DNA of 46,124 bases from positions 1 through 46,124 of IMG/VR virus record IMGVR_UViG_3300037461_000393; one strand, written 5' to 3'. A model generated the notes under the pieces. That model had not been told where the DNA came from. It was given only the letters and a program-made list of their open reading frames with translations, and made no database searches. This DNA comes from a virus. Taxonomy: Duplodnaviria > Caudoviricetes. A program made the position numbers and the translations under genes. Positions 2,499-40,230 of the stretch are shown piece after piece (position 1 is the stretch's first letter; each line of letters starts with the position of its first letter).

Positions 2499-4342
2499 GC
2501 CGGCTGGCTGAGTACCCGATCATCTCGGTCGACGTGGAAACGACCGGGCTGTACTGGTACAAGGATGAACTGTTCGGGGTAGCTGTCGCCGCCTTTGATG
2601 ACGACGTGATGTACAGCGGGTATTGGGACATCAGAAAGTCCCCCAAGGTCCTGCAGGTCCTCAACGAGCAGCTGCCCAAGGTCAAACGGCTGGTCAATCA
2701 CAACGTCAAGTTCGATGCCCACTTCCTGCTGAATCACGGCATCAGGACTCCGTTCGACAGGACCGAATGCACATCGGTGCGGGCCGCCCTTCTCAACGAG
2801 CACGAACCGAGTTTCAGTCTCGATTCCTTGTGCAAGGCCTATTTGAATAAGGGCAAACGAGTCGACGTATACGACAGGTTGGCGGAGTTGTTTGGCGGCA
2901 AGGCCGACAAGTCGCAGATGAAGAATCTCCATCGGGCTCCGGTCGGCGTCGTGTCGGAGTACGCGGTGCCGGACGCCGAACTTGCCATCGAATTGTGGTT
3001 GCATCAAGAAAAACACATGAGCGGGTTAGAGCAGGTGTGGAATCTTGAGCGCGAGCTGACTTCAGTGCTCATTGACATCGAGCGTAATGGTGTGCTTATC
3101 GACGAAGAAGATGTCGAGAGGAAGTTGCGCAGCATCGGACCCACCAAAGATAAGCTAGTCAAGAAGCTGCTGAAGATCGCCGGCAAGGATTTCAATGACA
3201 AGCTGTTCAATTCGCCGAAACAGATGCGCGAATTGTTCAAGGTGTGCGCCGATGAAGAGGGCCATTGGTACGCCGGCCCTGTCAAGTTAGTAATAACTGA
3301 CGCAGGTAATCCATCCATCGATGCGGATGTGTTACGATTACTGTCTGAGACGCATAACGACGAGCGGGCGGATCTTATCCTTAGGGTCAAGAAGCTTGAT
3401 AAGGCGCAGCAGTTCCTGAACAATCACATTAAAGGACATCTGCACGATGGAAGAGTTTTCCCAAACTACAACCAGACCAAGACCGAAAAGGGCACTGGCA
3501 CTGGCACTGGCCGTTTCTCAATTGATGACCCTGCTCTTCAGCAGATTCCGGCCCGCGATGTTCAAATGGCCGAGATCGTCAGGTCGGCCTTTATACCTGA
3601 AAAGGGTGAAGCGTGGTGTTGTGCGGATTGGGAGCAATTCGAATTTCGTTGGTTCGCGCACTACGTCAATGACGAGCAACTCAACGGCACGTATCTACGA
3701 AATCCCGACTCGGACTTCCACAAGACAGTAGCGGACCTGACCGGCCTGCCCCGGTCACCTAGATTCGCGGGGGACGCTAACGCCAAGCAAATCAATCTCG
3801 GCCTCGTCTTCGGGATGGGGCAGGGGAAGCTTGCCGCCGAAATGGGCTTGCCGTACGAAATACAGTACCGGCGGTTCAAGGACGGCGAGACTAAGGAAGT
3901 GTACATCGCCGGCCCCGAGGCCGAGGCGGTGTTCGAGAAGTATCATTCTTCGATCCCCGGCGTTAAGGCACTACTTGAGCAAGCTGGCTCGATAGCCAAG
4001 GCGCGCGGCTATGTGAAGACGATCATGGGCCGCCGCCTCAGGTTTCCGGGCGGCAAGTATACACACAAGGCTGGTGGGCTGGTGTTCCAAGGGACATCGG
4101 CCGACTGCAACAAAGCGAAGATGATAGAGCTTTACCACAGCGGGCACAAGCAGGGCGACTACCGCATCCTTCTGTCTGTGCACGATGAGTTTGATTTCTC
4201 GCTACCCAAGGGTAACAAGAAGGTGCCGGAGATCAAGCGAAGGTTGGAAACTTTCGATGGGAAGGAGTGCCCGATCATGTGCCGTATACCCATCCGGTCA
4301 TCAGTGAATGTCGGGCCAAATTGGTATGAGGCTAGCAAATGA
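2474..4342 (+). CDS. dpoZ: Family A DNA polymerase with 3'-5' exonuclease, DpoZ-type
   Basis: Exo motifs DVETTG, NVKFD, YAVPD; motif A ADWEQFEFR; divergent motif B AKQINLGLVFG; motif C VHDE; directly upstream of purZ. Confidence 0.88.
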   Translation: MRREPINLSRLAEYPIISVDVETTGLYWYKDELFGVAVAAFDDDVMYSGYWDIRKSPKVLQVLNEQLPKVKRLVNHNVKFDAHFLLNHGIRTPFDRTECTSVRAALLNEHEPSFSLDSLCKAYLNKGKRVDVYDRLAELFGGKADKSQMKNLHRAPVGVVSEYAVPDAELAIELWLHQEKHMSGLEQVWNLERELTSVLIDIERNGVLIDEEDVERKLRSIGPTKDKLVKKLLKIAGKDFNDKLFNSPKQMRELFKVCADEEGHWYAGPVKLVITDAGNPSIDADVLRLLSETHNDERADLILRVKKLDKAQQFLNNHIKGHLHDGRVFPNYNQTKTEKGTGTGTGRFSIDDPALQQIPARDVQMAEIVRSAFIPEKGEAWCCADWEQFEFRWFAHYVNDEQLNGTYLRNPDSDFHKTVADLTGLPRSPRFAGDANAKQINLGLVFGMGQGKLAAEMGLPYEIQYRRFKDGETKEVYIAGPEAEAVFEKYHSSIPGVKALLEQAGSIAKARGYVKTIMGRRLRFPGGKYTHKAGGLVFQGTSADCNKAKMIELYHSGHKQGDYRILLSVHDEFDFSLPKGNKKVPEIKRRLETFDGKECPIMCRIPIRSSVNVGPNWYEASK

Positions 4343-5388
4343 GGACACTACACATCATCACCGACATGCAATTCGGCAGCACCGGCAAGGGTCTGTTCGC
4401 CGGGTATATCGCCGAAATGAAGGATATCGACACCATCATCACGGCGTGGGGACCGAACGCGGGACACACTTATGTAGATTGGTCCGGCCGGAAGTTCGTG
4501 CACACGATGCTCGCAAACGGGATCGTTGGTGCGGGGGTCAGGATGGTGTTGATCGGTCCGGGGTCCGTGATCAACCCGGAGGCGCTGCGTGCCGAGATCC
4601 GTGGGGCCATTGACGTGCTCGAGAAGCATGAGATCGCGATCCTCATCCACGAGAACGCGGCGGTGGTAACCGAGGAGCATCGTGCCGCCGAGCGCGAGTA
4701 CGGCTTCAAGATCGGCAGCACGATGAAAGGTACGGCGCAGGCAATGATCCAGAAGCTGCGCCGCGACCCGGATCACCTGAACACGGCCGGCGCTATCCTG
4801 CGCAAGGACAAGTTCTTCGCGCCGATGGTCGTCGATTCGGATGTATGGATCGATTTGATCAAGAATCGCGCCCGCAATGTGTTGATCGAGGGGGCGCAGG
4901 GGTTTTCCCTTTCGATCAACCACGGCTTCTATCCGTACACCACCAGCCGGGATTGCACGACGGCACAACTGCTCGTGGACTGCGGCATCCCGATGGATTT
5001 TCTCGTGCATTCGGTGCCGACCGTTTATGGGGTGTGTCGCACCTACCCGATCCGCGTCGCGAACAGATTCGATGCCAACGGGAACCTGATCGGAACTTCC
5101 GGCCCGCATTACCGTGACCAAGTGGAAACGGATTGGGAAGCACTGGGCGTCGAACCTGAACTTACGACCGTGACCAAGCTGGTACGCCGAGTGTTTACGA
5201 TCAGCTACCATCAACTCGTCAAGGCCACGCAGATGAACGGGGTGTCGTTCATCTTCCTCAACTTCGCCAACTACGTCAGCCAATCGCAACTCGAAGACAT
5301 GACGGCCGAGATCAACCGGCAGACCGGGGCGATCGTGCGGTGGCACGGTTTCGGGCCGAAGGTCAACGACATCCGCACGGTTTTGTGA
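4339..5388 (+). CDS. purZ: PurZ, N6-succino-2-amino-2'-deoxyadenylate synthase (PurA paralogue)
   Basis: QFGSTGKG (Ser in place of the PurA GDEGKG Asp), PNAGHT, EGAQG, TTVTKLVRRV, LNFANY in place of TKLD; short 349-aa form. Confidence 0.93.
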   Translation: MRTLHIITDMQFGSTGKGLFAGYIAEMKDIDTIITAWGPNAGHTYVDWSGRKFVHTMLANGIVGAGVRMVLIGPGSVINPEALRAEIRGAIDVLEKHEIAILIHENAAVVTEEHRAAEREYGFKIGSTMKGTAQAMIQKLRRDPDHLNTAGAILRKDKFFAPMVVDSDVWIDLIKNRARNVLIEGAQGFSLSINHGFYPYTTSRDCTTAQLLVDCGIPMDFLVHSVPTVYGVCRTYPIRVANRFDANGNLIGTSGPHYRDQVETDWEALGVEPELTTVTKLVRRVFTISYHQLVKATQMNGVSFIFLNFANYVSQSQLEDMTAEINRQTGAIVRWHGFGPKVNDIRTVL

Positions 5389-5672: not shown

Positions 5673-5786
5673 GTGACCAACCAAGTCGTAGTGAATTTTT
5701 TGCTTGGGCTGGGGGTTGGGGTGATGGTCGGTGTATTGATCGGCCTGATCATTATCGAAATCGTCCGGTTCTGGAGATACCGATGA
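5673..5786 (+). CDS. Small membrane protein (37 aa)
   Basis: Hand-translated MTNQVVVNFLLGLGVGVMVGVLIGLIIIEIVRFWRYR; ATGA overlap with datZ. Confidence 0.6.
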   Translation: MTNQVVVNFLLGLGVGVMVGVLIGLIIIEIVRFWRYR

Positions 5787-6388
5787 AACTGACATTGTAC
5801 GACTTTCTGCGCGCAGGGCACGTCAAGCGGTGGCACATCGTGAACACCGTTACCCAGCAGAGCATCGCTGAGCATTCGTATCTGGTAGCCATCATCGCTA
5901 TGCACATTCACCGATGGGTGCAACCGGCGGGCGACGTCGAGCCGATGGAAACCGGTATCTACGCGCTGTTCCACGACGCCCCCGAAATCAGGACTGGTGA
6001 CATCCCGACTCCAGCCAAGAGGCTGCTTCGCGAGACGGAACGACCCCCGACCACGGACTTTGGGCCGGCGGAGATGGATCTTTTCGAGCGGCTCGACTTC
6101 AACCTATTGCCGGAGTGCCCGTTCATTCCGGGGGGCGAGGCGGCCGAAATATCGATCATGTGCGTTCGCATGGCCGACGCCATCGAGGCGGCCCACTGGA
6201 TTCGTGAAAACGGGGCGGGCCGGCATGCCGAGATCGTCGCTGCTGGTTGCTGGCGTAGAGTTGAAGACTTGGTCCACCAGTTTCATACCACGCAGAAGGA
6301 TGCTGACTGGTACGGGGCCGTGAATCATGTGATGATGGCCCTTGGCATGCCGTACGTTTCCCAGGAAGAACGGATCTCGCCACCCTGA
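5783..6388 (+). CDS. datZ: HD-domain dATP triphosphohydrolase DatZ
   Basis: VKRWHIV, QSIAEHS, HDAPEIRTGDIPTP, MADAIEA; inside purZ cluster. Confidence 0.85.
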   Translation: MKLTLYDFLRAGHVKRWHIVNTVTQQSIAEHSYLVAIIAMHIHRWVQPAGDVEPMETGIYALFHDAPEIRTGDIPTPAKRLLRETERPPTTDFGPAEMDLFERLDFNLLPECPFIPGGEAAEISIMCVRMADAIEAAHWIRENGAGRHAEIVAAGCWRRVEDLVHQFHTTQKDADWYGAVNHVMMALGMPYVSQEERISPP

Positions 6389-34212: not shown

Positions 34213-34408
34213 AGATCGGCGCTCGTGTCAACTGAACTTTATGGGGCGATACTCGGCTCGGAGACGGTGTGCGTCGGAACGAAGATTACAAGACCCGCGC
34301 GGGGGACCCGGAGCCCCGGCCCTACCCCCCCTCTGAAGTCGGGGGACCCAACAGACTTCGTGCACGCCCCGCCGGCCGAGGTCGGGGACGCCCCCTCCGG
34401 GAGGCAGC

Positions 34409-34492
34409 AGCCGGGGTTCACGGCCTGCCGACCCGGCGCACAGACCGGGGTCGGCGACGCCGGAACCCCGAGCCGGGGTTCACGGCCTGCCG
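34409..34492. repeat. 22-bp direct repeat x2 (AGCCGGGGTTCACGGCCTGCCG)
   Basis: Exact copies at 34409-34430 and 34471-34492. Confidence 0.9.
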
Positions 34493-34635
34493 GGGGCGTC
34501 ACGAAGTCCTCGCGTGCACGCGCGAGGCTGAGGGAGGCTGGCACGAGGCTTGGCGTCGCGCGATACGCGGATACGCTCGCCGATGCGCACACGTGCACCA
34601 CACGTTACCCGCTGCCGCGTAGCGCACGTACGGAC

Positions 34636-34926
34636 CGGAACAGAACGGCCCTCGGCAGGGTCTCTCTCGACTGGGAGTGTGTGCGTCTTAGCTGTTCCGC
34701 TGCTGTTCCGGCGAACCGGCCACAAACCCCGGCCCTCGGCCCGTGTTCCGTGCGTCTCTCTCGACTGGACGGGTGCCTCGCCCTCGCCCCCGGCTTCGTG
34801 TTCCGTCTGTTCCGCTCGGAGGCCCGTGAACCGCCGGCTTTAGGCACCCTCCGATGGCCCCCCGGCCGTGAAGGTCTGTTCCGCTGTTCCGCTCGGAGGC
34901 GGCTTTCCCGGAACAGACGCGGAACG
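34636..34926. repeat. Iteron-like TGTTCCG/CGGAAC array, candidate origin or packaging site
   Basis: Seven TGTTCCG copies flanked by inverted CGGAACAG; GTCTCTCTCGACTGG x2; CTGTTCCGCTCGGAGGC x2. Confidence 0.6.
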
Positions 34927-35111
34927 GTCCGCGACCCGGTGCCTTCAGGCAGGCTTCACATACCGCAGGCGCGGGATACGCTCCGCCCCCGTGGCTACCG
35001 CTCGTCGGCCACGACCGACCGTCCATCAGCCGCAGACTTACAGCCGCCTCGACCGGTGTGCTCTGATTCGTCCTGCAGTACCGACACACAACGAACCGAG
35101 AGGATAGCGAG

Positions 35112-35445: not shown

Positions 35446-35475
35446 TTGACGCAGCAGCCTTGCCCGTGCTACACT
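35446..35475 (+). promoter_or_regulatory. Sigma70-like extended -10 promoter
   Basis: TTGACG-N18-TACACT with TG-n before the -10 box. Confidence 0.7.
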
Positions 35476-35497
35476 CGCAGCCTGAGGGTAGCACCAA

Positions 35498-35538
35498 CAA
35501 GGCACCTGCCCTTGCCGCCACCGGTCGGACACCGGCAT
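35498..35538 (+). promoter_or_regulatory. Two-hairpin leader element, copy 1
   Basis: CAAGGCACCTGCCCTTG...CCGGT-CGGAC-ACCGG-CAT. Confidence 0.55.
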
Positions 35539-35560: not shown

Positions 35561-36058
35561 ATGACGAACGAAACCAACGCCACCGCCGAAGTCGTCGCCC
35601 CTGTCGTGACGGAGCCCACGAAGGCGAAGGTCGAGAAGAAAGCGGCACGTGCCGAGAAGAAGGCCGCCGCGAAGGCCAAGCCGGCCAAGGCCGCCGCGAA
35701 GAAACCGGCGAAGGTCGCCAAGAAGGCCACGAAGGCCGCCGCGAAGAAACCGGCGAAGGTCGCCAAGCCCAAGGATCCGAACGCGGTCAGCAAGTCCGTG
35801 ATCCCGCTGGAAGTAGCGAAGCAGTACCACGTCGACAAGGACCACAAGACGATCAGCGGGAATCCGTCGATCGACAACAATGACAAGGTGGCGAAGCTCC
35901 TGCGCGGTCAGCCGATCGAGAAGGTCTACTCGCTGGTCGCCAAGGAGGCCAAGTGCGCCGTGGGCGAACTGCAGAACCGGTACGGGCACCTGAACGTGGG
36001 GATGCAGCGCATGAATCTCGGCAACAAGCTGCGCGGTATCCTGAACGCGGCGGCCTGA
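35561..36058 (+). CDS. Histone H1-like (Ala/Lys/Pro-rich) protein with conserved C-terminal domain
   Basis: KAAAKKPAKVAK repeats; C-terminal LNVGMQRMNLGNKLRG. Confidence 0.85.
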   Translation: MTNETNATAEVVAPVVTEPTKAKVEKKAARAEKKAAAKAKPAKAAAKKPAKVAKKATKAAAKKPAKVAKPKDPNAVSKSVIPLEVAKQYHVDKDHKTISGNPSIDNNDKVAKLLRGQPIEKVYSLVAKEAKCAVGELQNRYGHLNVGMQRMNLGNKLRGILNAAA

Positions 36059-36108
36059 TTCACTTGCAGTAGTCTTGCACTCAGCGCCTGCCTAGTCGGG
36101 CGCTGCAG

Positions 36109-36149
36109 CAAGGCACCTGCCTTGAAGCGAACCGGGCGCAACCCGGCAT
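36109..36149 (+). promoter_or_regulatory. Two-hairpin leader element, copy 2
   Basis: CAAGGCACCTGCCTTG...CCGGG-CGCAA-CCCGG-CAT. Confidence 0.55.
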
Positions 36150-36164
36150 AGAGGATAGCGAAAA

Positions 36165-36500
36165 ATGGTCGAGAACGTACGGATCTGGACCGTGATTGGT
36201 CACAGCGCCATCGTGGGCGTACTGCCTGATCTGATCGGTTCATACTTCAATCTGTCCAGGGCCGAATCAAGGGCCGAACAGGTGCTGCGCGATCAATTCG
36301 GCCCGGACGTCCTGATCGAGTGGACGTCTCAGGATCTTCATCTCATCGACTCCACCAGCGCTGCGCCCCGCCACCACGTCATCAACACGATTCCCGGCGG
36401 TCGGAGGCTGGCGCGGGTCAGGGCCGACGAAAACGCGGTGCCGTACGCGGGAAGGGTCGAAGTGCGTGCCTCGACGCTTCACAAGGAAGCAGGCAAATGA
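36165..36500 (+). CDS. Early hypothetical protein
   Basis: GAGGATAGCG leader; ATGA overlap with next gene. Confidence 0.7.
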   Translation: MVENVRIWTVIGHSAIVGVLPDLIGSYFNLSRAESRAEQVLRDQFGPDVLIEWTSQDLHLIDSTSAAPRHHVINTIPGGRRLARVRADENAVPYAGRVEVRASTLHKEAGK

Positions 36501-36757
36501 CCGCACGTGCACCTGATGTACTCATAAATGCGGTGGACAGGCAGATCCGCATGCTCGGCTTCACGAACATGAAAGCCCGACGCGCTACGGATCTGCGCGT
36601 AACCTACCTCAAGGGCGTGCTCGACGCGTGCCTGCTGCTCGGCATCGCCACCGGCGACACCGTCTCGAAGGTGGAGTTCCTCGCAGCGATCGGTCGATCC
36701 GACGAAGCGCTGCGCCTGCTAACGAACCTGATCGTCGAAGAGGAGGGTAAGAAATGA
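36497..36757 (+). CDS. Early hypothetical protein
   Basis: MTARAPDVLI...; ATGA overlaps on both sides. Confidence 0.7.
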   Translation: MTARAPDVLINAVDRQIRMLGFTNMKARRATDLRVTYLKGVLDACLLLGIATGDTVSKVEFLAAIGRSDEALRLLTNLIVEEEGKK

Positions 36758-37101
36758 ACTGGAAACCAGCGACACCGCCGCACGTGGCAGTCGGGGTTGA
36801 AGCTGTCGTAGCCGTGGTCCGGCTGCTCGACGTACTCGACGCCCTCGATGAAGTTGAACACATCGACGCTGAGCAGATCGACAAGCCGGCGATCTGCGAG
36901 CGGATCGAGAAGCACATCAGCACCTATGCCGCCCGATTTGCCGAGATCGTCTACGACGGCGACGGCGCGTGGCTGAAAAACAAAGACTGCGAGCCCTTCA
37001 TCAGGCGCTATTCGGGGTCGCCGTATCTGCTCATCTACACGAAGTTGACGGACGGCAGCACTGAAAACATTGCCACGTTCGAAATCAGGGGGGTCGCATG
37101 A
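36754..37101 (+). CDS. Early hypothetical protein
   Basis: GGAGGG RBS; ATGA coupling. Confidence 0.7.
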   Translation: MNWKPATPPHVAVGVEAVVAVVRLLDVLDALDEVEHIDAEQIDKPAICERIEKHISTYAARFAEIVYDGDGAWLKNKDCEPFIRRYSGSPYLLIYTKLTDGSTENIATFEIRGVA

Positions 37102-37391
37102 ATGCCCATATCGTGACGCTGCAGAACGAGAACGGCGCGTGGATTTACGCGCACCCTGACGCGAAGACCGCCGACGATGCTGCCCGTGAACTGGCGACGC
37201 AGGAAGCTGATTCCATGACCCGGAACCGGGAAGGCAGCTTCTCGTGGATGAAGCGCGCGTCGTCGGACGGGTACGATTCGTACATCGTCTACGAAGACAA
37301 GGGCGAGGGTGTCGAGGGAGCGATCGACAGGGCGGAAGCTTACGTCGACGTCTACTGCGTCCCGTACGGCACGGCAATTAACGTAGGGTGA
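37098..37391 (+). CDS. Early acidic hypothetical protein
   Basis: ATGA coupling, phage-like codon usage. Confidence 0.7.
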   Translation: MNAHIVTLQNENGAWIYAHPDAKTADDAARELATQEADSMTRNREGSFSWMKRASSDGYDSYIVYEDKGEGVEGAIDRAEAYVDVYCVPYGTAINVG

Positions 37392-37394
37392 ACC

Positions 37395-37703
37395 ATGGAG
37401 TACGCCAAGACAGCGCTGTTTATCAAAGGCCTGCAGGCCCGAGGCGAAAAGGAAGTAACGCCACCAACGGTCAACGCGTGGCGCGTGTTCACTCGGAAGT
37501 ACGCGGGGCGCAGGACCGAGACGGATAGCCTGCGCCCGGTGGACAGGGGTTGCTATTCGTACTGGTTCGTGAAAAAGGGCGGCACGCAGATACGGGTGCA
37601 GGTCACGTTTAACGCCGACCGACCGATGGTGAAGTACGCCAGAAAAGTACGAGGCGACGTCATCGACCTGATCGCCGCAGAGGGCAAGCTGGCTAATAAA
37701 TAG
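37395..37703 (+). CDS. Early basic hypothetical protein
   Basis: Tandem in operon; its TAG overlaps hammerhead stem II. Confidence 0.7.
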   Translation: MEYAKTALFIKGLQARGEKEVTPPTVNAWRVFTRKYAGRRTETDSLRPVDRGCYSYWFVKKGGTQIRVQVTFNADRPMVKYARKVRGDVIDLIAAEGKLANK

Positions 37704-37766
37704 CCGATAACCCGCTTCGGCGGGTCTGCGCGGGACTGACCCTACGCGCACTGATGAGGCAGGGTC
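37703..37766 (+). ncRNA. Type II hammerhead ribozyme with pseudoknot and GAUAA core insertion
   Basis: GCC-GATA-ACCCGC-TTCG-GCGGGT-C-TGCGCG-[GGACTGACCCTA]-CGCGCA-CTGATGA-GGC-AGGGTC; loop GACCCT pairs with tail AGGGTC. Confidence 0.82.
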
Positions 37767-37784
37767 TCGATAAAGGATAGAGTG

Positions 37785-38033
37785 ATGAGAAACCCGAACT
37801 GGCAACTGATCTTGAAGGGAGCGGTAGATGCGGTGTCACTGCCCGCGCAGCTTGAAGCGATCATCGACGCGGCAGGCATGGCTGAGGTACTGTTCGTGCT
37901 GGCCGCGATCGCGAATGAGAAGGCCGAGCACTTGGCCACCAACTGGCAGGACGACGCGGCGGCCACGAAGTGGCTGAACGTCAGCACCCGGATCGAGAAC
38001 GTGGCACGCATCGCGAAGAGGGATCTACCGTGA
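37785..38033 (+). CDS. Early hypothetical protein
   Basis: AAGGATAG leader; LE.IIDAAG...VL..LAAIA.EKAEH...NWQD. Confidence 0.75.
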   Translation: MRNPNWQLILKGAVDAVSLPAQLEAIIDAAGMAEVLFVLAAIANEKAEHLATNWQDDAAATKWLNVSTRIENVARIAKRDLP

Positions 38034-38315: not shown

Positions 38316-38344
38316 TGGACAGACGGCGCGGCCTGTGCTATACT
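38316..38344 (+). promoter_or_regulatory. Sigma70-like extended -10 promoter
   Basis: TGGACA-N17-TATACT with TG-n; near-identical element at 44706. Confidence 0.75.
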
Positions 38345-38377: not shown

Positions 38378-39169
38378 ATGGACCTTGAGGACATGTTCGC
38401 CCAATTGAAAGCGGAGAGAGACGATGGGAAAGGCAAGGCAAAAAAAGCTGCAGCGCCAGCTAAGGGCAAGGCTGCAAATGCGAACCACGTTCGTAAGAAA
38501 AATGGCTCGAGGGCTGGTGCTGGTGCACCTGAGCGGCCTGCGCCGGATGCGCCTGATCGGCAGGAGCGGCCGGGTGTACGTGCTGCGCCAGCCCTTGTTC
38601 CAAGCGCCCCATCTGGTGAGGATCGACTAGGCGAGAAGGGTATCAGGCCCCCGCCTTTTGTTCCCAATGTCAGGACCCCCGACCAGTGGCCCAAGAAACA
38701 CGAGCCGGGCTCCCTCAAGACCGGCGATTCGGTGTGGTACGGGGAGGAGCGCTGGTGGATCGTGAACGCGCCGCCGACGTGGGAACCGACGTCGTTTGTG
38801 TGCGTCAGCGATCAGGCGCTACGTCCGAATGCCGCGATCCCGTCGGGCGTGAAGGTGCAGATGGTGCACGCCGATCTGCTGGAACTGGCACCGACGAAGC
38901 GAGGGCCACTGCTGTCGTCGGCTCAACCGACCAAGCACGCCATCGAGACTCGCGAGCGAATGAAGAAGGAAGGTCTGACCGACATCGGCGACGTGGTGGC
39001 GGAGAAGCTGCGCAACAAGACGCTCGACGAAGCGTACGCCATCGCGGCCGAATTTGTGAAGATCCCGGAGAACGAACTCCGGGCCAAGTACGTGAAGCTT
39101 AACCCCGGCCAGCAGCGCATGAATCTCGGTAACAGGATGCGTGGCTGGCTCAAGAAACACGGGAGTTGA
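38378..39169 (+). CDS. Hypothetical protein sharing its C-terminal domain with the 35561 product
   Basis: GAGAGGATAGCGCG leader; C-terminal [16 protein letters not shown]. Confidence 0.8.
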
Positions 39170-39171
39170 CA

Positions 39172-40230
39172 ATGACCGACGAGGCGAAAAAGCCTTATTT
39201 CATGTACCTGCGGCGCAAGTCTGCCGGTCAACCCGGTCCACCGGGACCTGCCGGCCCTCAAGGCCCTACCGGCGCAACGGGGGCAACCGGCGCAACGGGG
39301 GCAACCGGCGCAACGGGGGCAACCGGTCCCGCAGGCCCTCAGGGCGACCCCGGAGCCACCGGCGCAACAGGGGCGACCGGCGCTACTGGTCCTCAGGGTG
39401 ACCCTGGCGAAGGGGTTCCGACTGGTGGTACTGCAGGCCAGCTTCTGGCCAAGATCGACAGTGCGGACTACAACACCGAATGGGTCGATCCACCGGCCGG
39501 TGGCAGCGGGACATTTCATCCGGGACAGGTTGGGAATCTCGCCGGGTGGTACGTGGTCGATGACCTTGATAAGTTTTACAACGACGGCGATTCACCGAGC
39601 CATCTGCCGAATCGTTACGGGCGTATGTACTCGTTCACGGCACCCGGTGGCGCACAACCGCTATTCAAGACCAGCATTATCAACGGTCACGATGTGCTGA
39701 GGTTCAACGGAACCGGCCAATACATGACGACGCCGGAAACGGGCGTCGTATCGCCGCACTACAACAAAGACATGACGTTGATTGCGGTGGTGATCAACGA
39801 CCAGACTTCCACGCTTCAGTCTTTCATGGCGAAGGCCGAGGCTTCGAACTACGAGGTCTACTGCTACACCAAGCCGACCGTCGGGCTTTGGACTGCTGGC
39901 GGGTCCGGGGTCGCGAACGCCAATTACGGCTCAAATCCCACGGCGGGGACTGCCTACATCATGGTGTGGCGGGTCAGCAACGGCAAAGAAATAAAGTGCT
40001 GGAGGGACGGAGGGACCGGCGTGGCTTCAACCAGCTTCAGCAGCTCAACCGGGAGTTCGAACAGCAAGTGGGCGCTTGGGCAGCGTGGCGACAGCACGGT
40101 TGGCAACTACTTCGATGGCGACGTGGCTGAAATCCTGATGTACGCCAATGCGTTACTGGAGGCCGAGATCGACGAAGTGCTCGAGTACCTTTCCGATAAG
40201 TACGGGATTACCGTAACGGCGTGCACCTGA
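39172..40230 (+). CDS. Collagen-repeat plus LamG/ConA-like fibre protein
   Basis: Gly-X-Y run, [13 protein letters not shown]...YNTEWVD linker, [23 protein letters not shown]...L...YLSDKYGI. Confidence 0.8.
39271..39324. repeat. 18-bp tandem repeat x3 (GGCGCAACGGGGGCAACC) encoding GATGAT
   Basis: Visible within the collagen region. Confidence 0.85.

Follow-up and report, generated by a model that had tools for sequence, protein, structure and literature searches.

Is an RNA with one nucleotide too many in its catalytic core a hammerhead ribozyme, and what might it do between two small phage genes? The question arises at 37703–37766 (plus strand) of the window analysed here, a stretch of 46,124 nt that is a complete 46-kb virus record from wetland metagenomes, related to the phiVC8/ZP6/SH-Ab 15497-like phages. 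A first-pass annotation had proposed a type II hammerhead ribozyme at this position, with a loop I/3′-tail pseudoknot and a non-canonical GAUAA core. Sequence read-back, shuffled controls, Rfam family RF02276 and covariation in relatives (which extends to the pseudoknot) support the assignment, and the coordinates given for every element are exact, base for base.

The element begins with the 5′ strand of stem II (GCC, 37703–37705), the first G of which is also the final base of the upstream TAG. The core stretch GAUAA (37706–37710) reads as G12 A13 U13a A14 A15.1, with U13a at 37708 visible as an insertion in the Rfam alignment. Stem III (37710–37725) consists of six base pairs, ACCCGC (37710–37715) with GCGGGU (37720–37725), capped by a C-UUCG-G tetraloop, and has a pairing probability of 0.90. 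It runs into the GUC triplet (37724–37726), in which C17 is nucleotide 37726; a cut after C37726, as annotated, is supported as a predicted position (C37726/U37727) placed by hammerhead numbering. Stem I (37727–37750), also of six base pairs (UGCGCG, 37727–37732, with CGCGCA, 37745–37750), carries a 12-nt loop and pairs with a probability of 0.92 at its base and 0.55 at its top. Read-back then gives the core CUGAUGA (37751–37757; C3 U4 G5 A6 U7 G8 A9) and, at 37758–37766, the 3′ strand of stem II (GGC, 37758–37760) followed by the tail AGGGUC (37761–37766), which forms six Watson–Crick pairs with GACCCU of loop I (37738–37743). The sequence thus has the type II core C3 U4 G5 A6 N7 G8 A9 and, with one inserted U, G12 A13 A14, the A15.1–U16.1 pair and H17. 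Loops close stems I and III and stem II is open, the layout of type II; the pseudoknot, common in this type though not universal, is present as well. CUGAUGA had been called invariant, which overstates the case, as position 7 of CUGANGA varies and is C in 4 of the 29 sequences with U13a described below.

A descriptor search that allowed an optional insertion found a single type II match in the entire 46-kb window. Dinucleotide shuffling of the window, repeated 2701 times, gave 55 loose matches, 3 medium ones and none equally strict. Descriptors for type I and type III hammerheads matched nowhere in the window, no tRNA was found in it, and second cores or further copies of the cut site were not above chance within it. 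Comparison with the Rfam hammerhead models, which the first-pass annotation had suggested as a check, recovered RF02276, aligned over its full length at 37702–37768 with the U as an insertion (25.2 bits; E 1.5e-4 when searched as a single model). This was the sole Rfam match in the window at E ≤ 1. No match in the window reaches an Rfam gathering score; that of RF02276 is 37, an operational cut-off and not a biological definition of the type II hammerhead. The same cut-off is passed by 7 of 13 U13a copies (ten loci) and missed by both GAAA copies of locus L194. Over 37402–37768, the window agrees at every position with a contig assembled from another DNA run (X2, depth 3.2), which carries the same U, so the extra nucleotide is not an assembly slip. 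Model R1, in which the window copy is included, matched at E < 1 only that copy and L136, a related phage fragment. These data confirm that the motif in the window is real; the ribozyme is probably active.

A reading of the non-canonical GAUAA core as new or surprising is not supported. It is the U13a of Perreault et al. 2011 (PMC3088659), given there as a natural variant 'inserted in the GAAA region', with the extra base likely directed away from the core. In the accessible part of that source, Fig. S6 is titled active variants, and from the PDF text layout we read the Solibacter usitatus type II construct as the GAUAA one. Other core variants are described there as slow, and 4 of 18 consensus hammerheads as inactive in vitro. 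We saw no rate constant given for U13a in the text. A string search of supplementary files gave 0 matches to GAUAA, GATAA or 13a, which says little because figures and gapped alignments break such strings. The paper also describes type II hammerheads, the loop I/tail pseudoknot and clustering between prophage genes, together with tandem phage hammerheads that cut polycistronic RNA and require the pseudoknot for speed. For later work on hammerhead core variants, we found nothing pertinent in the open-access literature. The window ribozyme is one more phage hammerhead in a class known since 2011.

To place the inserted U among its relatives, we collected U13a hammerheads from viral and metagenome sequences. 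A pattern fixing core bases only gave stem-complete examples at 5 of 15 viral loci. With further patterns that also fixed two tail bases, the yield was 11 of 43 viral loci and 21 of 30 metagenome loci, while 0 of 4 matching loci in genome contigs were well structured as a U13a hammerhead. The pattern sets overlap and reduce to 29 distinct U13a sequences including the window's own; some of the 28 further sequences may already be present in the supplementary alignments of Perreault et al. 2011. A first, loose pattern scan had returned ∼1400 stretches, of which 120 loci gave 0 well-formed U13a hammerheads and 3 canonical ones. Searching cultured phages with the ribozyme by blastn produced short matches only, most of them around the hairpin of stem III.

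We aligned 26 of the 29 sequences, omitting three near-duplicates; the register of the window row is shifted in part. In this alignment, 92.5% of cells pair and changes on both sides are seen in 15 of 20 pairs, but members had been selected for having at least 5 bp in stems I and III, which inflates the pairing percentages. The pseudoknot lies outside this filter, although some of the search patterns fixed two tail bases, and 4 of its 5 pairs show double-sided changes among the 26. The alignment score was reached by 0 of 500 shuffles, and slid registers fell far below it. Across all 29 sequences, a pseudoknot of at least 5 bp could be formed with the sequence's own tail in 83% of cases, versus 32% with swapped tails.

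How unusual is the insertion? The plain-GAAA version of the pattern matches ∼2100 stretches (an estimate from 4 of 64 parts), and 108 of 123 sampled were structured; U13a makes up ∼0.3% of the matching viral type II hammerheads. When A, C or G was allowed at position 13a, 33 loci were found with no pseudoknotted example among them and one doubtful case (L227). The insertion thus looks specific to U, with the caveat that the sample is small and some of the bias could be due to descent. One contig, L194, carries a GAUAA copy next to two near-identical GAAA copies built on the same scaffold, and the closest 3′ half to each of the 29 U13a sequences was a GAAA member in 8 cases, another U13a sequence in 16 and a tie in 5. 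Because of the L194 trio and these 8 cases, the U seems to have been gained or lost more than once. Together, the 29 natural sequences and the L194 trio offer an easy way to measure what the inserted U costs or does.

Canonical viral type II hammerheads (L249–L371) come in two forms. One has a short loop I, a 4-bp stem II and rarely a pseudoknot (45/122); the other has a long loop I, mostly a 3-bp stem II, and the pseudoknot (77/122). Five contigs from the single unbiased pattern suggest that all U13a copies belong to the long-loop, pseudoknotted subtype. One short contig, L212, has two kinds of ribozyme on its plus strand (749–805 and 1160–1228), a type-P5 twister and, ∼350 nt away, a U13a hammerhead.

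Compared with known systems, the window copy resembles RF02276 type II ribozymes in its permutation with an open stem II, its complete core and short stem II, its loop I–tail pseudoknot and its site between phage genes. It differs from typical members in scoring under 37 bits and in having U13a, and its loop I is two bases longer than in most U13a relatives. With the U13a variant, as given in the accessible part of Perreault et al. 2011, it shares the U inserted between A13 and A14, but its stems and its host element are different. It resembles the prophage hammerheads and the HHphage of haloviruses HF1 and HF2, likewise as far as that source describes them, in lying between polycistronic phage genes near a start codon; unlike these, it is present in a single copy, has ORFan neighbours and resides in a likely Z genome. 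The PK hammerhead, in the accessible part of Zhan et al. 2024 (PMC11300833), also uses a pseudoknot as tertiary contact and G12/G8 chemistry. We rejected identity with it because the pseudoknot there replaces helix II, whereas the window ribozyme keeps a covarying 3-bp stem II.

The ribozyme sits among small genes of unknown function between terminase and primase, a region we infer to be early from its position only. Five such genes overlap or abut one another at 36165–37703, and after the ribozyme come two more genes and a promoter-like site at 38316–38344. The last of the five, a 102-aa ORF (37395–37703), ends in the TAG at 37701–37703. Downstream, a Shine–Dalgarno-like AAGGA (37773–37777) begins 6 nt past the pseudoknot, within a one-mismatch copy of a 10-mer that precedes three other genes, and is followed by an 82-aa ORF at 37785–38033 (ATG at 37785, or GTG at 37782). 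The intercistronic position claimed for the ribozyme is therefore correct, with a stop upstream and a ribosome-binding site (RBS) and ATG downstream. That it fills the gap between them is right in part: it lies between stop and RBS, but overlaps the stop codon, whose G opens stem II. Searches of viral contigs and of a 5.8-billion protein set returned no relatives of either flanking gene, neither falls in a Pfam or PHROG family, and their Atlas matches are all below 0.9; a likeness of the downstream ORF to small viral hypothetical proteins is a lead only. A canonical type II hammerhead is present in the related fragment L136 (primase 54%) as well, where it lies between stop and RBS among small genes.

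Proximity to a stop codon is not peculiar to the window. In the U13a set, an ORF-closing stop lies ≤60 nt upstream of the ribozyme in 27 of 29 cases, and an RBS plus start ≤45 nt downstream in 22 of 29. A stop triplet ends ≤5 nt before G12 in 24 of 29 U13a and 91 of 122 GAAA sequences. These near-G12 stops close an ORF of at least 30 codons in 20/24 and 76/91 cases, respectively, compared with 6/32 and 25/145 for control triplets 30–60 nt upstream. We found no paper in the open-access literature on a link between hammerheads and stop codons. Such placement may simply save space, or folding may be gated by a ribosome as it terminates. The purpose of such ribozymes in bacteria and phages is termed undefined in the accessible part of PMC6765202. 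That most type II phage hammerheads start at a stop codon offers a testable handle on that purpose.

We consider it likely that the element is a type II hammerhead with the known U13a and that it makes a single predicted self-cut after C37726, which would split a polycistronic message between the five-gene block and the genes that follow. Stems III and I, both well populated in the fold (0.90 and 0.92), would form first. Stem II and the pseudoknot would then complete the structure, with the pseudoknot docking stems I and II and U13a presumably bulged out of the core and tolerated. Cleavage would follow established hammerhead chemistry, with G12 as base and the G8 2′-OH as acid (Zhan et al. 2024, PMC11300833, accessible part), and would leave a 2′,3′-cyclic phosphate and a 5′-OH, the general products described in the accessible part of PMC8782182. 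The upstream fragment would end 23 nt past its own stop codon, in the UUCG hairpin, and the downstream fragment would carry stem I and the pseudoknot at its 5′ end, which would lie 58 nt ahead of the ATG. The two gene blocks would no longer be coupled, and the downstream message would likely become more stable; in E. coli reporters, a ribozyme insulator raised mRNA about twofold on average (PMC6206723, accessible part). The ribozyme would act largely as constitutive punctuation, with nothing specific to a Z genome. The limits of the transcript are uncertain because the promoter count is near chance (2 sites versus 1.6 expected).

In silico folding was less straightforward. Nested-fold programs preferred either an extended alternative helix (−28.5 kcal/mol) or an upstream hairpin, stem II having a pairing probability of 0.0 in the latter case, but such programs cannot score a pseudoknot. 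Considered in isolation, the pseudoknot duplex is more favourable than the competing arms (−8.7 versus −7.0). The competing hairpin, predicted at 37690–37706 (plus strand; −6.6 kcal/mol, z −2.07), would hide the 5′ strand of stem II together with G12; it is not conserved.

The hairpin and the stop codon within stem II raise the alternative that upstream translation gates cleavage, in that ribosomes, as they approach and terminate, would toggle the ribozyme between blocked and active states. The excess of ORF-closing stops near G12 over controls speaks for this, and a ribosome on the stop would, given the footprint size we assume, cover G12–A15.1. However, the compactness of phage genomes could by itself account for the position of the stop, and structure dictates the A and G of TAG in this subtype (28/29 have A at −4). 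The 5′ strand of stem II is strongly paired in just 10 of 29 U13a and 26 of 122 GAAA sequences, with no common geometry, and termination is brief. We regard gating as unlikely. We likewise grant a small chance to a broader proposal. In it, the type II hammerheads of phages would be cassettes fused to a stop codon, with cleavage governed by ribosome traffic on the upstream gene; U13a would be no neutral bulge but a tuning element of the pseudoknotted subtype that is specific to uridine and has been gained repeatedly; and the window copy, with a competing hairpin over the last codons, would be translation-gated.

The window copy might instead be slow or nearly inactive, through U13a or the competing folds, and be tolerated, decaying or tuned down. 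The rarity of U13a (∼0.3%), the alternative folds predicted here and the slowness of other core variants in the accessible part of Perreault et al. 2011 are consistent with this, and the flanking genes lack relatives for a conservation test at the locus. Yet the remaining core bases, the stems and the pseudoknot are perfect, and covariation holds throughout the U13a set. Moreover, five contigs (L139, L151, L176, L181 and L202) each contain two U13a copies, with different stems in at least four of them. Taken together, these observations make a crippled ribozyme improbable, and we favour a single, largely constitutive cleavage of the message.

The first-pass annotation had further linked the ribozyme to an RNA-level control layer in a Z-genome phage. 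The phage does appear to be of this kind. A PurZ-like gene (4339–5388, plus strand) encodes a Ser14 that is identical to the aligned residue of the top solved homologues, of which one is named PurZ, and that we take to occupy the position of Asp13 in PurA. Nearby, a gene at 5783–6388 (plus strand) encodes a DatZ-like dATP triphosphohydrolase (phrog_7076, E 2e-31). Phage mRNA should hold ordinary adenine, so a link between ribozyme and Z genome is not expected. Replacement of PurA Asp13 by Ser is the rule for PurZ (PMC8515928), and with both the PurZ-type Ser and a DatZ-type dATPase near purZ, a Z genome is likely from sequence. Still, PurZ is encoded on 0 of 8 U13a contigs (4 complete), and Rfam, the descriptor and model R1 detected no hammerhead in five cultured PurZ phages (PSA28 and PMBT28, whole; phiVC8, ZP6 and SH-Ab 15497, stretches), nor was one found in L137. 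An RNA control layer peculiar to phages with a Z genome, or a single core that acts in trans on several early sites, is thus largely refuted and very improbable, despite the PurZ-like and DatZ-like proteins and two more structured RNAs in the same region, as neither cut-site nor core copies in the window are above chance.

These two further RNAs are long, irregular intergenic hairpins on the plus strand (35451–35537 and 36066–36146; z −2.6 and −3.2). They have a lower stem and an exact 12-mer in common (35498 and 36109), while their upper stems differ in sequence without loss of pairing. Downstream of each come a small CCGG hairpin and an RBS. The two look similar to RNase III-type processing sites. 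No Rfam family matched, and of 11 viral pattern matches, 0 had the full two-hairpin layout. Two sigma-70-like promoters with TG ahead of the −10 hexamer were seen at 35446–35475 and 38316–38344 (plus strand), a count not above chance. The former overlaps the first hairpin, so that a transcript able to form this hairpin would have to start further upstream.

Four early-region genes are preceded by the same ribosome-binding leader, a 10-mer found on the plus strand at 35100, 36151 and 38366, with the one-mismatch copy at 37773. In L136 (4197–5500, minus strand), an RBS-ending leader is likewise repeated before four small genes; once it forms the 3′ end of the canonical type II hammerhead, and twice it follows a promoter-like stretch. 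Two phrog_8941 paralogues (35561–36058 and 38378–39169, plus strand) have a common C-terminal domain and are also paired in L136; the first contains a Lys/Ala-rich, histone-like tract. A collagen-like repeat protein resembling tail fibres is encoded amid the early genes (39166–40230, plus strand), on the strand opposite the structural module. A GC-rich stretch of ∼870 nt (34230–35100) without a convincing gene separates the first early gene from that for the terminase small subunit; it contains an exact 22-nt direct repeat (34409 and 34471) and is a candidate genome end or origin.
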